From Alphaproteobacteria bacterium 41-28 (GTDB lineage: Bacteria > Pseudomonadota > Alphaproteobacteria > UBA9655), in assembly GCA_001897795.1 (NCBI GenBank), contig MKUL01000022.1, forward strand, positions 3,363 to 67,362: a DNA stretch of 64,000 bases, read 5' to 3'. The notes under the pieces are model-generated. The model was not told where the DNA came from, did no database searches, and saw only the letters and a list, made by a program, of their open reading frames with translations. The position numbers and the translations under genes were made by a program. Positions 53,931 to 58,070 of the stretch are shown here, one piece after another; positions within the stretch are counted from its first letter, which is position 1, and each line of letters starts with the position of its first letter.

Positions 53931-53985
53931 AAATTTCTATTTCACATTCGTAAATCATTATGTTAAGAGATGCGACTCTATCGAT
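53931..53985 (+). promoter_or_regulatory. Conserved upstream module, copy 1 (TATTTCACATTCGTAAATCATTATGTTAAGAGATGCG)
   Basis: It lies ~89 nt upstream of the 54027 start. It contains TTCACA-N17-TAAGAG, a possible -35/-10 pair. Confidence 0.6.
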
Positions 53986-54026
53986 CGCCAACGGCGACGT
54001 TATTATTTATTTGGGAGTCTTTATGA

Positions 54027-55541
54027 ATGAAAATTATTTATTTATGTTTTTCAATAGTTACTTTACTTATATCTATACCATCTTATGCTATGGAGGAACC
54101 TGAGGAAGATGCCAAGACGAGACTTTCTCGTCATTGGAATGATCTTCGAGGCTCTCTTGAGGAACTCCGATCCTATCTTCCATCTTCAAGAGAAGAAGAG
54201 GTTGAAAATAACTCCGATCCGTTAAAAAGATGGAGAGAAAAGGACGTTGAAGAACTAAAAATTCGTAGATTTTATCCAGATAACCACATACCAATACAGT
54301 TTCGGGATAATAAGTATATTCTAAGGCTTTGCTGGGAAGCTTTAACAACAAAAGGACTTACTGAAACTCAGCGGGCTAATATTTGTATCAATTATGCAGT
54401 GGCTTCTTTAAAATTGGGTCGTGCTACTGATGCTATAGATTATTTTCAGAGGGCTTTAGACGAAAAGAATTCAGAATGTTGTTTTGTAATAGAGGGAAAT
54501 GATCGCCTTACAACTTTCTATTATACTGCTGAGGCATACAAAGATTTAGGGAAATACGACGAGGCGATTGAATTTTATGACCTTGCCTTGAGTGGGACTT
54601 CTCAACTAAATCGTTTTACATCAAAAAAAATTGCTAACCCCAATATCCTTTTTGGTTTGGCAGAAGCATTGAAGAAACGAGCATTAGAGGTTGGAAGTAT
54701 TGAAGCTTATAAAAAAGTCTTAGACCTTAAGGATAGAGGGGGGCGGGTTATGGTGGGCGGCCATGATCGGGTGAAGATTTACCTTCTTCTGGCAAATATA
54801 TTAACTGATGAAAATCTAAGTTGTGAAGCAGTCATTTATTATCATAAAGCCATAAATGCAAGAAATGAGAAAGGTTGTTTTCTTCTCGAAGGAGAAAAGC
54901 GAGAAGAAACCCTTTCCCGACTTATGAGTACGTTGACATCATCAGGCCAAGCAGGGTCTCATGAGGTCTATACGTTGGCAGGTAATACAAAAAATGAAAA
55001 AGGAGTATTTGCATACTCAGATTATGATCAAAAAAGGATTCTCAAAAAGAAGGTCGAGACGGAAAAAAGTCGGAAAAACCTATTTTGTATTCAAATGCCT
55101 GCCAACAGAAAACGTAAGCTACCCCTTTCATGCGATCAAGGCACTAAAAAAGATGAGAAAACCAAATCTATGGATAGTAGACCTGAGGAAAGTGCAGCTT
55201 ACTTAATCGATCGTATAAAAAACGCTTTAAAAGCTGCAGGTGATCTCAAGATTGCGCTAAGAAACTGCGATGAACTTCTAAAAAGGCAAAACTTAATGAG
55301 TGAAGAGGATTATGGTTCTGCATTAGAGCTGAAGTTGACCGTTTTACAAAAATTGGTGAAGGTATCTCAAGGAGAGGTAAAAAAGAAAATGCAGAAAGAA
55401 GCTGAGGAACTTGGTAATTTGTTAAGTGAACTTCAAGAGAGCCCAGAATCTTCTAGAATGGGGATTAACTTTTTACTTAGTGGTGAAAAGCCTCCTCTTA
55501 AAAAGTCAAGGCTTCAATCTGATGAAGCTTCAAATCCATAA
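54027..55541 (+). CDS. Secreted TPR-like protein, paralogue 1, with NLS-like clusters and a PPLKKSRL tail
   Basis: Signal peptide MKIIYLCFSIVTLLISIPSYA then MEEPEED. TPR-like units are present (AEAYKDLGKYDEAIEFYDLAL). Basic clusters are ANRKRKLP and the C-terminal EKPPLKKSRLQSD. Confidence 0.75.
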   Translation: MKIIYLCFSIVTLLISIPSYAMEEPEEDAKTRLSRHWNDLRGSLEELRSYLPSSREEEVENNSDPLKRWREKDVEELKIRRFYPDNHIPIQFRDNKYILRLCWEALTTKGLTETQRANICINYAVASLKLGRATDAIDYFQRALDEKNSECCFVIEGNDRLTTFYYTAEAYKDLGKYDEAIEFYDLALSGTSQLNRFTSKKIANPNILFGLAEALKKRALEVGSIEAYKKVLDLKDRGGRVMVGGHDRVKIYLLLANILTDENLSCEAVIYYHKAINARNEKGCFLLEGEKREETLSRLMSTLTSSGQAGSHEVYTLAGNTKNEKGVFAYSDYDQKRILKKKVETEKSRKNLFCIQMPANRKRKLPLSCDQGTKKDEKTKSMDSRPEESAAYLIDRIKNALKAAGDLKIALRNCDELLKRQNLMSEEDYGSALELKLTVLQKLVKVSQGEVKKKMQKEAEELGNLLSELQESPESSRMGINFLLSGEKPPLKKSRLQSDEASNP

Positions 55542-55610
55542 ATTGCTGTCTATCATTCGGTTTTTCAGCTCCCTATATGCGTGGAAATTGGCGCAATGTG
55601 TGAATTTGTT

Positions 55611-55665
55611 AATTTTTATTTCACATTTGCAAATCATTATGTTAAGAGGTGCGCTCAAATTAATT
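55611..55665 (+). promoter_or_regulatory. Conserved upstream module, copy 2 (TATTTCACATTTGCAAATCATTATGTTAAGAGGTGCG)
   Basis: It lies ~83 nt upstream of the 55700 start. Confidence 0.6.
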
Positions 55666-55699: not shown

Positions 55700-56356
55700 A
55701 TGAATAAAGTTTTTTTTGGTGTTTTAGTGGTGATGTTTGTTTTTGCAAGCAAGTCTTATGCAATGGAAGAGAGGGAGGAGACAACCTTCACTCCCAGGAA
55801 TAGACAGATTCCTGAGCAAAGTCCTCTTATGATTCTGGCCCAATATGAACAAAATCATGGCCGTCCCGAAAAAGCTCTTTCCATTTATAATGGGCTCTTG
55901 GCGTTAAATGAGTTAACTCCTCCCAATCTACCCCGATTGGCACCTCAAGACGAAGCGAAACTACTTTATCAAAAGGGATTGGCTCTAAAAATATTGAAGA
56001 AATATGAAGATGCACTCGTTACCTTCAAAGCTGCAAAGAAACTAAACAATTCGAGCGGAAGCTCTGCCTTAGAAGGAAAAGACCGTGCCATGGTTCAGGT
56101 TGAGATTGGGAAAATCCATATAAATTTGGACAAGCCACGCAAAGCTCTAAAAGTCCTTAACATGGCTCTTACAATGAAAAATCCAAATCCAAAAAATGCA
56201 AATGCCTTGCAATACGACGATAGACAACACACCAAACAGATGCTTAAAAAGCTCTATCGTATAATAGACCTTCTTCCCTCACAGCAAAATGCTTTGCAGA
56301 ATCCCTCCAATCCAGGAGGAAAAGAGATAAACTATATTTTTATTTCACATACGTAA
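55700..56356 (+). CDS. Secreted TPR-like protein, paralogue 2 (short form)
   Basis: Signal peptide ...FVFASKSYA then MEEREE. TPR-like units are present (LLYQKGLALKILKKYEDALVTFKAAKKL). The 3' end runs into module copy 3. Confidence 0.7.
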   Translation: MNKVFFGVLVVMFVFASKSYAMEEREETTFTPRNRQIPEQSPLMILAQYEQNHGRPEKALSIYNGLLALNELTPPNLPRLAPQDEAKLLYQKGLALKILKKYEDALVTFKAAKKLNNSSGSSALEGKDRAMVQVEIGKIHINLDKPRKALKVLNMALTMKNPNPKNANALQYDDRQHTKQMLKKLYRIIDLLPSQQNALQNPSNPGGKEINYIFISHT

Positions 56357-56390
56357 ATCATTATGCTAAGAGGTGCAACCCTATTGCTCT
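56331..56390 (+). promoter_or_regulatory. Conserved upstream module, copy 3 (TATTTCACATACGTAAATCATTATGCTAAGAGGTGCA)
   Basis: It lies ~89 nt upstream of the ATG at 56430. Confidence 0.6.
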
Positions 56391-56429
56391 CCATAAGAGA
56401 GCCTTTTATTTCTCTTGGAGAATTTATGC

Positions 56430-58070
56430 ATGAAAGTTATTTATTTTGGAGTTTCAATATTTGCACTCGTCGTATCTGCAACGTCTTATGCTATGGAGGA
56501 AAAAGAAAATCGGCAAGGACCTTCGTTTAGTTCTCAACTCAATACAATCCTTGAACAATCTCCACTCAGTGAAGAAGGTTGTATCAATTATGTAACGAAA
56601 AATGTTGTTTACGACCGGACGGGATCGCCTCTTTCTCCTCAAAACGTTCTAGAGTATTCCAATAAAGCTTTACAACGACCGAATCTTACTCAAGAACAGT
56701 TTGTTCCTATTTATCTCAATAAAGCAGGAGCCTATGACAGATTGGGAAAATATAGTAAGGTTCAGAAATATTATCGTAAAGCATTAGAGGCAAAGGGTGA
56801 AAAAAGCCGTCTCCTAGAAGTGGATTATCAAGAACAGAATTGTCCAAACTTCACTCGCACGTGCGGAGTTATAAAAATGGAAAAGGATACTTTTCCTGGT
56901 CTAAGCTCGCATCGTACAAATCTTGGAATTCTCATATCTGAGATGAAGGAGAAATCTATAGAAGTAGATTTCGAAAGCTCTGATTCAATATATCCAGAGC
57001 CGTTTATAAGGATAGATGAGGTAAGGAAGCCATTACGAAGAGCAAAAAAAGTTGACAAATCTCCACGATATGATGAGGCAAGGGAGCTAATACGAAGTGC
57101 AAAAACAGCTAACCAGTTGATGCGATATAATGAGGCATTAAGTGATTACATAAAAGCTATAAGATTAGCAACGGGCGTAAAAGAAAAGGTGACGGCTAAG
57201 CTTGCTATGAAGATCACTAGGGATATCGGTGAAGCCTTTAAAGAAATCGGAATAATTCTCGCTAAACAACGGAAGCCTAAGGTTTCTATCTTGGCATTAA
57301 AGATTGCATATAATACGAAAGGGATCGATGGTGATAAATATGCCTTGAACGATAGTGACCGTAAAAAGCTTCCACTAATGATTGAAGAGATCAAAAATAC
57401 TCATAAAGAATGGCCTTCTCCCCCAATATCTGATCCCATAAAATTTTCCCCACTGACCTCGATTCATAAGGATAAGGAAAATGTAGAAGCGAAAATGGCT
57501 CAGATTGAGAGCGGGCTATTAGCAGGGGGAAATTCCGAAAGAGTTGCAAGAATTTGTGATGAACTTTTAAACCTCTCATCGAACAATGATCCAAGATCAT
57601 TGAACAATTCGGAACGTGCTAAGGTATTGTCTCAAAAGGCAGAAGCCTTACGCAGGCTCTCGAATTCAGCTAGGGGTAGCGCTTTAAAACAAGAAAAGTC
57701 TAAAGAAGCTTTAGCTTGTGATGAAGAAGCTAGAAAACTTGAGGAAAATTTTGTTGAAGAGGTAAACGAGGAAGAAGCTAAAGAAGTCGAAGACGAGGCT
57801 GTTAAGTTATCGCCAAATCAGGGCTCTAAGAAAAGGAGGCTGGAAAGAAAAACAAAACGGAAAACTGATGAGGAAAGGGAAGTTGAAACAGAAACAGAAA
57901 CGGAAACAGAAACAGAAGAAGTCGAACAATCAGAATCGAAAAAATCCTGCATTCACAAGTCAAAAAAGAGTGAGAATAAGGATCCTAACGAGAGCTGTCA
58001 GAAGCCTCCTCTTAAAAAATCTCGGCTCATTATCAAGGAAACTGGGGGGAGGATCTGGAGATTCGGGTAA
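56430..58070 (+). CDS. Secreted TPR-like protein, paralogue 3, with bipartite NLS-like clusters, an (ET)n tract and a PPLKKSRL tail
   Basis: MKVIYFGVSIFALVVSATSYA then MEEKEN, with the ATG at 56430 preferred over the TTG at 56415. Later features are SKKRRLERKTKRKTDEE, ETETETETETEE and QKPPLKKSRLIIKE. Confidence 0.75.
   Translation: MKVIYFGVSIFALVVSATSYAMEEKENRQGPSFSSQLNTILEQSPLSEEGCINYVTKNVVYDRTGSPLSPQNVLEYSNKALQRPNLTQEQFVPIYLNKAGAYDRLGKYSKVQKYYRKALEAKGEKSRLLEVDYQEQNCPNFTRTCGVIKMEKDTFPGLSSHRTNLGILISEMKEKSIEVDFESSDSIYPEPFIRIDEVRKPLRRAKKVDKSPRYDEARELIRSAKTANQLMRYNEALSDYIKAIRLATGVKEKVTAKLAMKITRDIGEAFKEIGIILAKQRKPKVSILALKIAYNTKGIDGDKYALNDSDRKKLPLMIEEIKNTHKEWPSPPISDPIKFSPLTSIHKDKENVEAKMAQIESGLLAGGNSERVARICDELLNLSSNNDPRSLNNSERAKVLSQKAEALRRLSNSARGSALKQEKSKEALACDEEARKLEENFVEEVNEEEAKEVEDEAVKLSPNQGSKKRRLERKTKRKTDEEREVETETETETETEEVEQSESKKSCIHKSKKSENKDPNESCQKPPLKKSRLIIKETGGRIWRFG
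57885..57920 (+). repeat. Hexanucleotide microsatellite (GAAACR)5-6 encoding (ET)n
   Basis: Read directly: gaaacagaaacagaaacggaaacagaaacagaagaa. Confidence 0.9.

Follow-up and report, generated by a model that had tools for sequence, protein, structure and literature searches.

What holds together three adjacent genes whose products look secreted and share little beyond their ends, and where might those products act? The question is raised by a tandem array, P1, P2, and P3 (BGO67_09465, BGO67_09470, and BGO67_09475), in the metagenome-assembled genome (MAG) listed by NCBI as "Alphaproteobacteria bacterium 41-28," which the NCBI taxonomy places among unclassified Alphaproteobacteria. We analyzed a 64,000-nucleotide (nt) stretch of this MAG, referred to below as the window; coordinates of the features are collected in Table 1. 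Each gene of the array is preceded by a copy of the same 36-nt module, and each begins by encoding a similar signal peptide. The account toward which we lean, though only modestly, is that the array belongs to a lineage-restricted family of Sec-exported tetratricopeptide repeat (TPR) proteins, that each gene has its own promoter module, and that the products are directed at a host and carry candidate nuclear import motifs.

The size of the family was estimated with a profile of the first 50 residues, which was run exhaustively with HMMER against 1.84 billion representatives. Twelve matches were obtained at E ≤ 1e-3, of which nine are genuine members: P1, P2, the P3 representative, P0006, P0007, P0009, P0011, P0012, and P0013. 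All members whose contig can be placed come from the same MAG or a close relative. The family is thus very small and restricted to one narrow, genus-level clade, and the original prediction, which would have been undermined by close homologues common in free-living bacteria, is upheld on this point. Word-indexed protein searches were less sensitive: the P1 query returned P1 alone and missed the true paralogue P0011, the N-terminal alignment gave no match, and the P3 query yielded two orthologues (P0003 and P0004; 62 to 64% identity). P0011 (BGO67_03070) is an unlinked fourth paralogue encoded elsewhere in the same MAG, 34 to 35% identical to P1 over its full length (E of 1e-54), in agreement with the proposal that the family arose by duplication. 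Within the array, pairwise identity is ~25 to 29% overall. The term paralogue, which had been applied to all three products, holds for the 5′ cassette, the first 45 to 150 residues, and the C-terminal motifs, where the similarity is mainly found, and much less for the remainder.

The module follows the pattern TATTTCACATWYGYAAATCATTATGYTAAGAGRTGC, which is matched three times in the window with no mismatch. The copies lie 89, 83, and 89 nt ahead of the start codons at 54027, 55700, and 56430, in agreement with the earlier report of a motif repeated three times at 83 to 89 nt before a start. Copy 3 had also been said to overlap the 3′ end of P2, and it does: the P2 stop codon TAA (56354-56356) lies within the module, so that the last 16 nt of P2 are shared. 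No further match with up to three mismatches was found on either strand of the window (0.00 expected from 100 shuffles), and a position weight matrix built from the copies revealed no weaker ones over the whole 64 kb. Between module and gene lies a variable leader of about 35 to 50 nt with a GGAG Shine-Dalgarno sequence.

The module is also found outside the array, in several related genomes. It stands upstream of 10 of 10 family genes with readable upstream DNA, namely, the three genes of the window, two genes in the sequence labeled L032 (a and b), and one gene each in L015, L031, L033, L028, and L034. No copy, even a weak one, precedes a non-family gene in the window or in ~70 to 75 kb of nonredundant DNA from the same MAG and its relatives. 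For the three copies in the window, mean pairwise identity is 0.24 in the 40-nt upstream flank, 0.91 in the module, 0.44 in the leader, and 0.66 in the signal peptide–coding part; the corresponding values for nine copies are 0.30, 0.72, 0.42, and 0.72. Since two conserved blocks are split by a diverged leader, the pattern points to selection on the module rather than to one gene-conversion tract. Overall, comparison of the copies supports selection on the module as a cis element of this family.

The conserved layout, TTCACA-N17-TGnTAAGAG, fits an extended −10 promoter of the sigma-70 type. TTCACA agrees with the −35 consensus TTGACA at five of six positions, and the spacer is 17 nt long. In the aligned copies, TG and the TA of TAAGAG are invariant and TTCACA is intact in seven of nine; in L031, similarity starts just ahead of this hexamer. 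The most variable position of the 3′ half of the module is the base between TG and TAAGAG, where an extended −10 element is expected to have its free "n." Between the hexamer and the ATG lie 41 to 59 nt, depending on the copy, a variation that is more readily expected of a promoter than of an RNA element coupled to translation. The spacer TAAATCATTA is AT-rich and unusually conserved, beyond what a bare promoter needs, from which we infer that it is probably also an operator bound by a regulator.

Several results speak against reading the module as a promoter. TAAGAG agrees with TATAAT at only three of six positions and lacks the final T, a position at which the alphaproteobacterial −10 consensus is looser. 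The module was not called by a consensus promoter scan, the conservation of the spacer is not explained by a plain promoter, and TTCACA has been lost from the L028 copy. A scan of public genome contigs for the module gave 0 matches, and a scan of public metagenome contigs for its core gave 12, all of them chance matches without TAAGAG; in both cases, the source contigs are evidently outside the collection. The original prediction spoke of a dedicated promoter or operator of a virulence or symbiosis regulon. The promoter part is retained, since the layout of the module is compatible with a promoter that may include an operator. The regulon part finds no support in the DNA that was read: the module was found there only before family members, and it may therefore be inherited with each gene copy.

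The same data can be read in three other ways. Conservation of all 36 nt, including the spacer that a bare promoter does not need, could mean that the module is mainly a dedicated transcription factor site, either an activator site replacing the −35 element or a repressor operator, which defines a wider virulence or symbiosis regulon, with core hexamers that are weak or located elsewhere. In line with this, AATCATTAT resembles one arm of what we take to be the classical Fur box (consensus GATAATGATAATCATTATC), and seven of the nine aligned copies retain the first, second, and sixth bases (T, A, and T) of an alternative −10 hexamer, TATGnT. The resemblance to the Fur box is weak, however, being a half-match with the other arm absent; the inverted repeat TTCACAT/ATGnTAA has a variable base where symmetry needs T; no regulator gene is linked to the array; and no non-family gene has the module upstream in the DNA that was scanned. 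We consider this reading unlikely. Comparison by eye with known motifs of sigma-54, sigma-32, extracytoplasmic function (ECF) sigma factors, sigma-28, CtrA, LexA, Zur, PhoB, and CpxR yielded none that fits.

Action at the RNA level, in which the 5′ half of the module (CAUNNGUAAA) would pair with the start-codon region (UUUAUGNAUG) and mask initiation in the manner of a thermometer or riboregulator, appears very unlikely. Copies 1 and 3 and L015 form the stem in their minimum-free-energy folds, 77% of cells pair in nine copies compared to 27 to 47% when the partner is slid, and, when only the first four copies were compared, a C-G to U-A exchange seemed to be compensatory. Yet, with nine copies, covariation of the 10-bp stem was no better than in shuffles (283 of 500 reached the observed score), pairing was poor in L031, L032a, and L033, and single-sequence folds of four leaders gave z-scores of −0.3 to −1.7, which are not significant. 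Leader length differs by 18 nt, and conservation ends at the 5′ edge of the module, leaving no conserved promoter ahead of it. Covariance models of Rfam 15 produced no relevant match to the module or leader; the sole match at E ≤ 1 was a chance mir-284 on the metQ-side hairpin (26.7 bits versus a gathering score of 60). Local hairpins 3′ of the module were rejected as a conserved feature, as they occur in copies 1 and 3, L015, and L034 and not in others. Least probable of all is that module similarity is a functionless leftover of recent duplication or gene conversion of 5′ ends. The copies do belong to paralogues, and copy 3 and its L015 orthologue show a module conserved no better than its surroundings. 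The L034 gene is a mosaic, with an upstream flank like that of copy 1 and a module-to-signal-peptide part slightly closer to copy 3 (85.5% versus 83.5%), a small difference that is consistent with recombination between cassettes. A passive origin is, however, hard to reconcile with the diverged leader between the two conserved blocks, with the abrupt drop of identity upstream of the module, or with retention of the module in different genomes by genes whose proteins are only 25 to 35% identical.

An ATG inside each module (window positions 53960, 55639, and 56363) opens a frame, MLR(G/D)A…, of 9 to 55 codons. This frame was rejected as an upstream open reading frame (ORF) on account of its varying length and the lack of a Shine-Dalgarno sequence, the latter suggesting that it is probably not translated. 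Gene callers sometimes begin a family gene at this ATG (P0013 starts MLRGAV…).

The three proteins begin with the 21-residue signal peptides MKIIYLCFSIVTLLISIPSYA, MNKVFFGVLVVMFVFASKSYA, and MKVIYFGVSIFALVVSATSYA, each ending in SYA and each followed by MEE, just as had been noted from the translations. By inspection, they have the features of Sec export and cleavage by signal peptidase I: an MK n-region, 14 to 15 hydrophobic residues, and (P)SYA/MEE (slash, predicted cleavage site) with small residues at −3 and −1. The same layout recurs in every other member found, with the ending (S/A)(Y/H)A, an invariant Met at +1, and acidic residues thereafter. Met followed by acidic residues at this position seems to be a wider habit of the secreted orphans of this organism. 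A 483–amino acid (aa) orphan with no Pfam match and no module (window 38210-39661, + strand) has a different signal peptide ending …PAWS/MEERDELK and the clusters CKRPNHQ and KKQPTKRQK, and a 759-aa neighbor of P0011 (L028 12315-14594) has …VWA/MENSEE and carries GKRKRDKKDDTFATPKKQTKRE.

Assignment of the three products to the TPR class stands for two of them and is borderline for the third. P1 and P2 pass the Pfam gathering cutoff for TPR_2 (34.3 and 34.8 bits versus 27), and P3 falls just below that for TPR_1 (27.2 versus 27.8); P0009, P0011, and P0012 have weak TPR matches. Members share a common architecture: after the signal peptide come variable TPR-like helical repeats, then a linker modeled with low confidence, a helical block that is conserved (…IKNALKAAGNL..AL.NC.ELL…), and finally an unstructured tail, also of low confidence in the models. 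In P1, the TPR region spans about residues 95 to 305 and is followed by the linker, the C-terminal block, and the tail; in P3, the block spans residues 345 to 459 and the tail, which includes a TETETE run, residues 461 to 546. P2 is a short member. Its end, …KEINYIFISHT, aligns with the family motif …MGINFLL, and its ORF runs from this INFLL-like end into the module of the next gene, which accounts for the lack of a basic PPxKK tail. Searches of PDB sequences found nothing beyond generic TPR similarity.

Two basic motifs hold their position across members that are only 25 to 35% identical. One, x[KR]KRKxP, is a four-residue basic cluster, often with a proline within a few residues (ANRKRKLP, ANRKRKQP, VPKKRKDP, KPRKRKDYP, GTKRKRASSP, and GSKKR(R/K)). 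The other, PPxK[KR]x[RK], is C-terminal and comes after [RK]MxIN[FY]LL (PPLKKSRL, PPFKRPRL, PPSKRRHS, PSLKKHRF, and PSHKKQRR). The PPLKKSRL tail that had been described for P1 and P3 is present, in frame, in both. In the AlphaFold2 models of P1 and P3, which are weak, both motifs fall in low-confidence, unstructured parts. The clusters had been likened to mono- and bipartite nuclear localization signals (NLSs), and the monopartite half of this comparison holds. The monopartite pattern (K-K/R-x-K/R; PSORT pat4/pat7) occurs in P1, P3, P0003, P0004, P0007, P0011, and P0012 as the strings RKRK, KKRR, KKRK, KRKR, PPLKKSR, PPFKRPR, and PPSKRRH, and the partial L032b product has RKRK/PRKRKDY. NLS patterns are found at a density of 4.74 per 1000 aa in the family and 0.79 in 45 other proteins of the window. 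The bipartite half does not hold: KKRRLERKTKRK is a contiguous run rather than two clusters with a spacer of 10 to 12 residues, and its second half (ERKTKRK) is deleted in the P3 orthologues P0003 and P0004. A literature search on the NLS peptides returned nothing. Judged from these motifs, nuclear import of the family proteins is possible.

The family evolves fast and turns over between close relatives. In the organism of L015, housekeeping DNA shares 91% identity with its counterpart in the window, whereas the P3 protein is 64% identical, with several indels. The ratio of nonsynonymous to synonymous substitution rates (dN/dS) for P3 and its orthologue is 0.51, compared to 0.05 to 0.31 for the neighbors L19, S16, and RimM. 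P0007 and the P3 orthologue P0003 adjoin rplS in other relatives, and the rplS-side site is filled by family members in L015 and L031. In L016, the GTDB representative, the same site holds unrelated genes and the array is absent, and no family gene is found in the 550 nt readable beside rplS in L017. P0009 comes from GCA_035531295.1, whose TrmD and that of the window share 91% identity. In L034 (210-1048), a frameshift divides a P1-like gene into a 119-aa ORF and, further on and in a different frame, an ORF with TPRs; either the gene is a pseudogene or this 1-kb Logan contig was misassembled.

In the account that we favor, each duplicate would inherit a 5′ cassette consisting of the promoter module, the leader with its GGAG Shine-Dalgarno sequence, and the 21-residue signal peptide ending (S/A)(Y/H)A/ME. 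Cassettes would recombine between members while the mature proteins diverge quickly. The extended −10 promoter and the operator in its spacer would cause the paralogues to be transcribed and regulated alike, and the products would cross the inner membrane and then, most likely, exert their effect beyond the bacterial cell, on a host that is a eukaryote (protist), with x[KR]KRKxP and PPxK[KR]x[RK] as candidate nuclear import signals. Besides the array, the window encodes two Sel1-repeat proteins with signal peptides, an NB-ARC/TPR STAND protein, and several orphan secreted proteins. This neighboring repertoire, the fast diversification of the family, and its conserved basic motifs together make a host-directed function plausible and nuclear import possible, and P1, P2, and P3 are reasonable but unproven candidates for host-acting proteins.

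A number of observations count against host targeting. In a Gram-negative bacterium, a Sec signal peptide delivers a protein to the periplasm only, and no route of release was identified here. An intracellular habit or a protist host would be a matter of conjecture. The AlphaFold2 models have low confidence (mean predicted local distance difference test scores of 53.5 for P1 and 50.8 for P3), and Foldseek searches of the PDB with these models gave only generic helical-repeat matches (E ≥ 0.03, TM-score < 0.2). P2 has no tail and a single weak KPRK match, the second half of the "bipartite" cluster is missing from two orthologues as described above, and in one P3 orthologue the tail has degraded to PPLKKSWF. 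Compared to composition-matched shuffles, NLS patterns per protein are only marginally enriched in P1 (89 of 2000) and P3 (125 of 2000) and not significantly so in the others.

Such observations would be accommodated if the proteins were periplasmic or envelope TPR scaffolds serving the bacterium itself, with basic clusters that are incidental to lysine-rich tails or act as a bacterial sorting or secretion signal. Delivery to the periplasm is what the signal peptide predicts, many TPR proteins of bacteria function in that compartment, and NlpI and LapB were among the numerous generic TPR matches of the fold search. The near-expected NLS counts and a tail motif that is not strictly conserved, and is absent from P2, agree with this reading as well. 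Envelope TPR proteins are, however, conserved single-copy housekeeping genes, whereas this family is multicopy and confined to one genus-level clade. A dN/dS of ~0.5, turnover between close relatives, and a GC content of 37 to 39% in the array versus 44 to 47% in the flanks do not suit a housekeeping role, nor does the retention of two basic motifs at fixed positions in very diverged members. On balance, we regard an envelope function as doubtful but worth keeping in view. We are still more reserved about a stronger version of the host-directed account, in which the family would consist of nucleomodulins of a protist-associated lineage, exported by Sec and then released, bearing a Myb/Myc-type PxxKKxR signal and a conserved Phi-xx-LL, and jointly switched on by the promoter-operator under a host-responsive regulator; taken as a whole, this version is improbable. 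The likeness of the PxxKKxR tail motif to Myb and N-Myc signals is no more than a lead.

The region of P0011 (L028 1-9205) contains genes for the F-type Tra proteins TraF, TraH, TraG, and TraD, as well as for a toxin (ParE), AbiEii, a Sel1 protein, and a DUF6119 protein of 1399 aa. This TraD, the coupling protein, is closest (35 to 36% identity) to TraD encoded on plasmids of the amoeba-associated bacteria Protochlamydia naegleriophila and Legionella; a comparison of P0011 with plasmids gave no match. With respect to type IV secretion substrates, the family has a basic C-terminal tail and P0011 lies beside TraD, but all members have N-terminal signal peptides, which are atypical of such substrates.

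The array is located between metNIQ on one side and a convergent rplS-trmD-rimM-rpsP-ffh cluster on the other, and an identical protein turns up on more than 20 contigs from metagenomes. On each side, the array is bordered by a long and very stable hairpin (Table 1). The inverted repeat on the metQ side probably terminates metQ transcription or marks a boundary; the nested repeat between the convergent P3 and rplS has the appearance of a boundary element or of a terminator that serves both directions. For P3, a mechanical ORF list gives a TTG start at 56415; the ATG at 56430 (MKVIYFG...) fits the paralogues and the gene calls on public contigs.

Table 1. Positions of the array, its upstream modules, protein motifs, and flanking repeats in the 64,000-nt window.
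Feature	Position	Strand	Details
Long inverted repeat, metQ/array gap	53803-53872	+	31-nt arms; fold −38.6 kcal/mol, z −7.7; kept in relative L034 (L034 1-56)
Module copy 1	53938-53973	+	TTCACA 53941-53946, 17-nt spacer, TG 53961-53962, TAAGAG 53964-53969
P1 (BGO67_09465)	54027-55541	+	504 aa; ORF, Pfam, model
P1 signal peptide	54027-54089	+	residues 1-21
RKRKLP in P1	55107-55124	+	residues 361-366, linker
PPLKKSRL in P1	55491-55514	+	in frame
Module copy 2	55617-55652	+	TTCACA 55620-55625, TG 55640-55641, TAAGAG 55643-55648
P2 (BGO67_09470)	55700-56356	+	218 aa; ORF, Pfam
P2 signal peptide	55700-55762	+	
Module copy 3	56341-56376	+	TTCACA 56344-56349, TG 56364-56365, TAAGAG 56367-56372
P3 (BGO67_09475)	56430-58070	+	546 aa; ORF, Pfam, model
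P3 signal peptide	56430-56492	+	
KKRRLERKTKRK in P3	57828-57863	+	residues 467-478, tail
PPLKKSRL in P3	58005-58028	+	in frame
Long nested inverted repeat, between convergent P3 and rplS	58093-58170		fold −40.9 kcal/mol, z −6.1

The gene content of the window, with MreBCD, RodA, PBP2, GGDEF-EAL, and LysR among its housekeeping and regulatory genes, is unlike that of a minimal endosymbiont. The two Sel1-repeat proteins with signal peptide–like N termini are encoded at 18426-21368 (980 aa) and 27786-29360 (524 aa), both on the + strand; the predicted signal peptide of the latter ends …CSYA/GKD, resembling the SYA of the TPR family. The STAND-type protein (1101 aa; 43457-46762, + strand) has NB-ARC, AAA, and TPR_MalT/TPR_12 domains, and cyclase and alpha/beta-hydrolase genes lie downstream of it in a low-GC stretch (34 to 39%). 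A GC-rich palindrome of the repetitive extragenic palindromic (REP) type (CCCTCACCCGCC…GGCGGGTGAGGGG) is intergenic at 48558-48680 and recurs at L015 2062-2118, directly after the P3 orthologue, with 97% identity over 30 nt; it is probably a dispersed repeat of the lineage. Genes for AAA_14 + DUF4143 ATPases, a repeated type often tied to mobile or defense regions, are found near both ends of the window, at 1775-2929 (− strand) and 63422-63958 (− strand, running past the window; L001 19396-20619). The region at 4000-12000 is low in GC (34 to 38%) and possibly an acquired island; it holds small orphan ORFs and genes for a GH108 lysozyme with PG_binding_3, LysR, a nitroreductase, and a GAF-GGDEF-EAL protein. 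Look-up of a GTG-started 880-aa ORF returned no record, and a literature search on the MAG name returned nothing.

Families with comparable features are known from other bacteria. Virulence proteins of the Sel1/TPR class with Sec signals include LpnE, EnhC, and LidL of Legionella and Hcp of Helicobacter. Like these, the 41-28 family combines an N-terminal signal peptide with TPR-class repeats and is multicopy and lineage specific, and the known proteins belong to bacteria that interact with eukaryotes; unlike them, it has its own C-terminal helical block, basic tail motifs, and promoter module, and it shares with them only generic TPR sequence matches. Among Sec-dependent effectors with NLSs are SAP11 of phytoplasmas and Sec-delivered effectors of Ca. 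Liberibacter, and nucleomodulins are known from bacteria more generally. A cleavable signal peptide (predicted here) and NLS-like basic clusters in flexible regions are common to both groups, with the host nucleus as the candidate target. However, the known effectors are small and lack TPRs, and in phytoplasmas, which have no outer membrane, Sec export amounts to secretion, whereas the 41-28 proteins must cross an outer membrane.

At the level of regulation, PmrA and CpxR boxes are found upstream of Dot/Icm effector genes of Legionella and Coxiella. In both cases, a conserved cis element lies at or beside the promoter of several candidate host-interaction genes; the boxes, however, are short direct repeats of unrelated genes, whereas the module is 36 nt long and so far found only before paralogues. 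Conserved 5′ cassettes are also characteristic of the vlp genes of Mycoplasma hyorhinis and of the erp and mlp genes of Borrelia with their "upstream homology box." There, as here, a conserved promoter–leader–signal peptide block precedes a rapidly diverging coding part, and members exchange sequence, as the L034 mosaic may illustrate. These known families encode lipoproteins and have phase-variable tracts, in contrast to the 41-28 genes, which encode TPR proteins and have no lipobox and no homopolymeric switch. By sequence, the 41-28 family appears to belong to none of these systems beyond membership in the TPR clan.

No concept is changed by these results, since lineage-specific secreted TPR/Sel1 families and shared effector promoters are already well known. 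What the array shows is a cassette of probable promoter, leader, and signal peptide that is kept intact while the mature proteins diversify. If the favored account is true, then the family would be a compact and tractable case: its delimited cis element could report when the family is switched on, and its motifs predict nuclear import directly. It could also help to clarify how this MAG, which turns up in many metagenomes from bioreactors and the environment, relates to a host.

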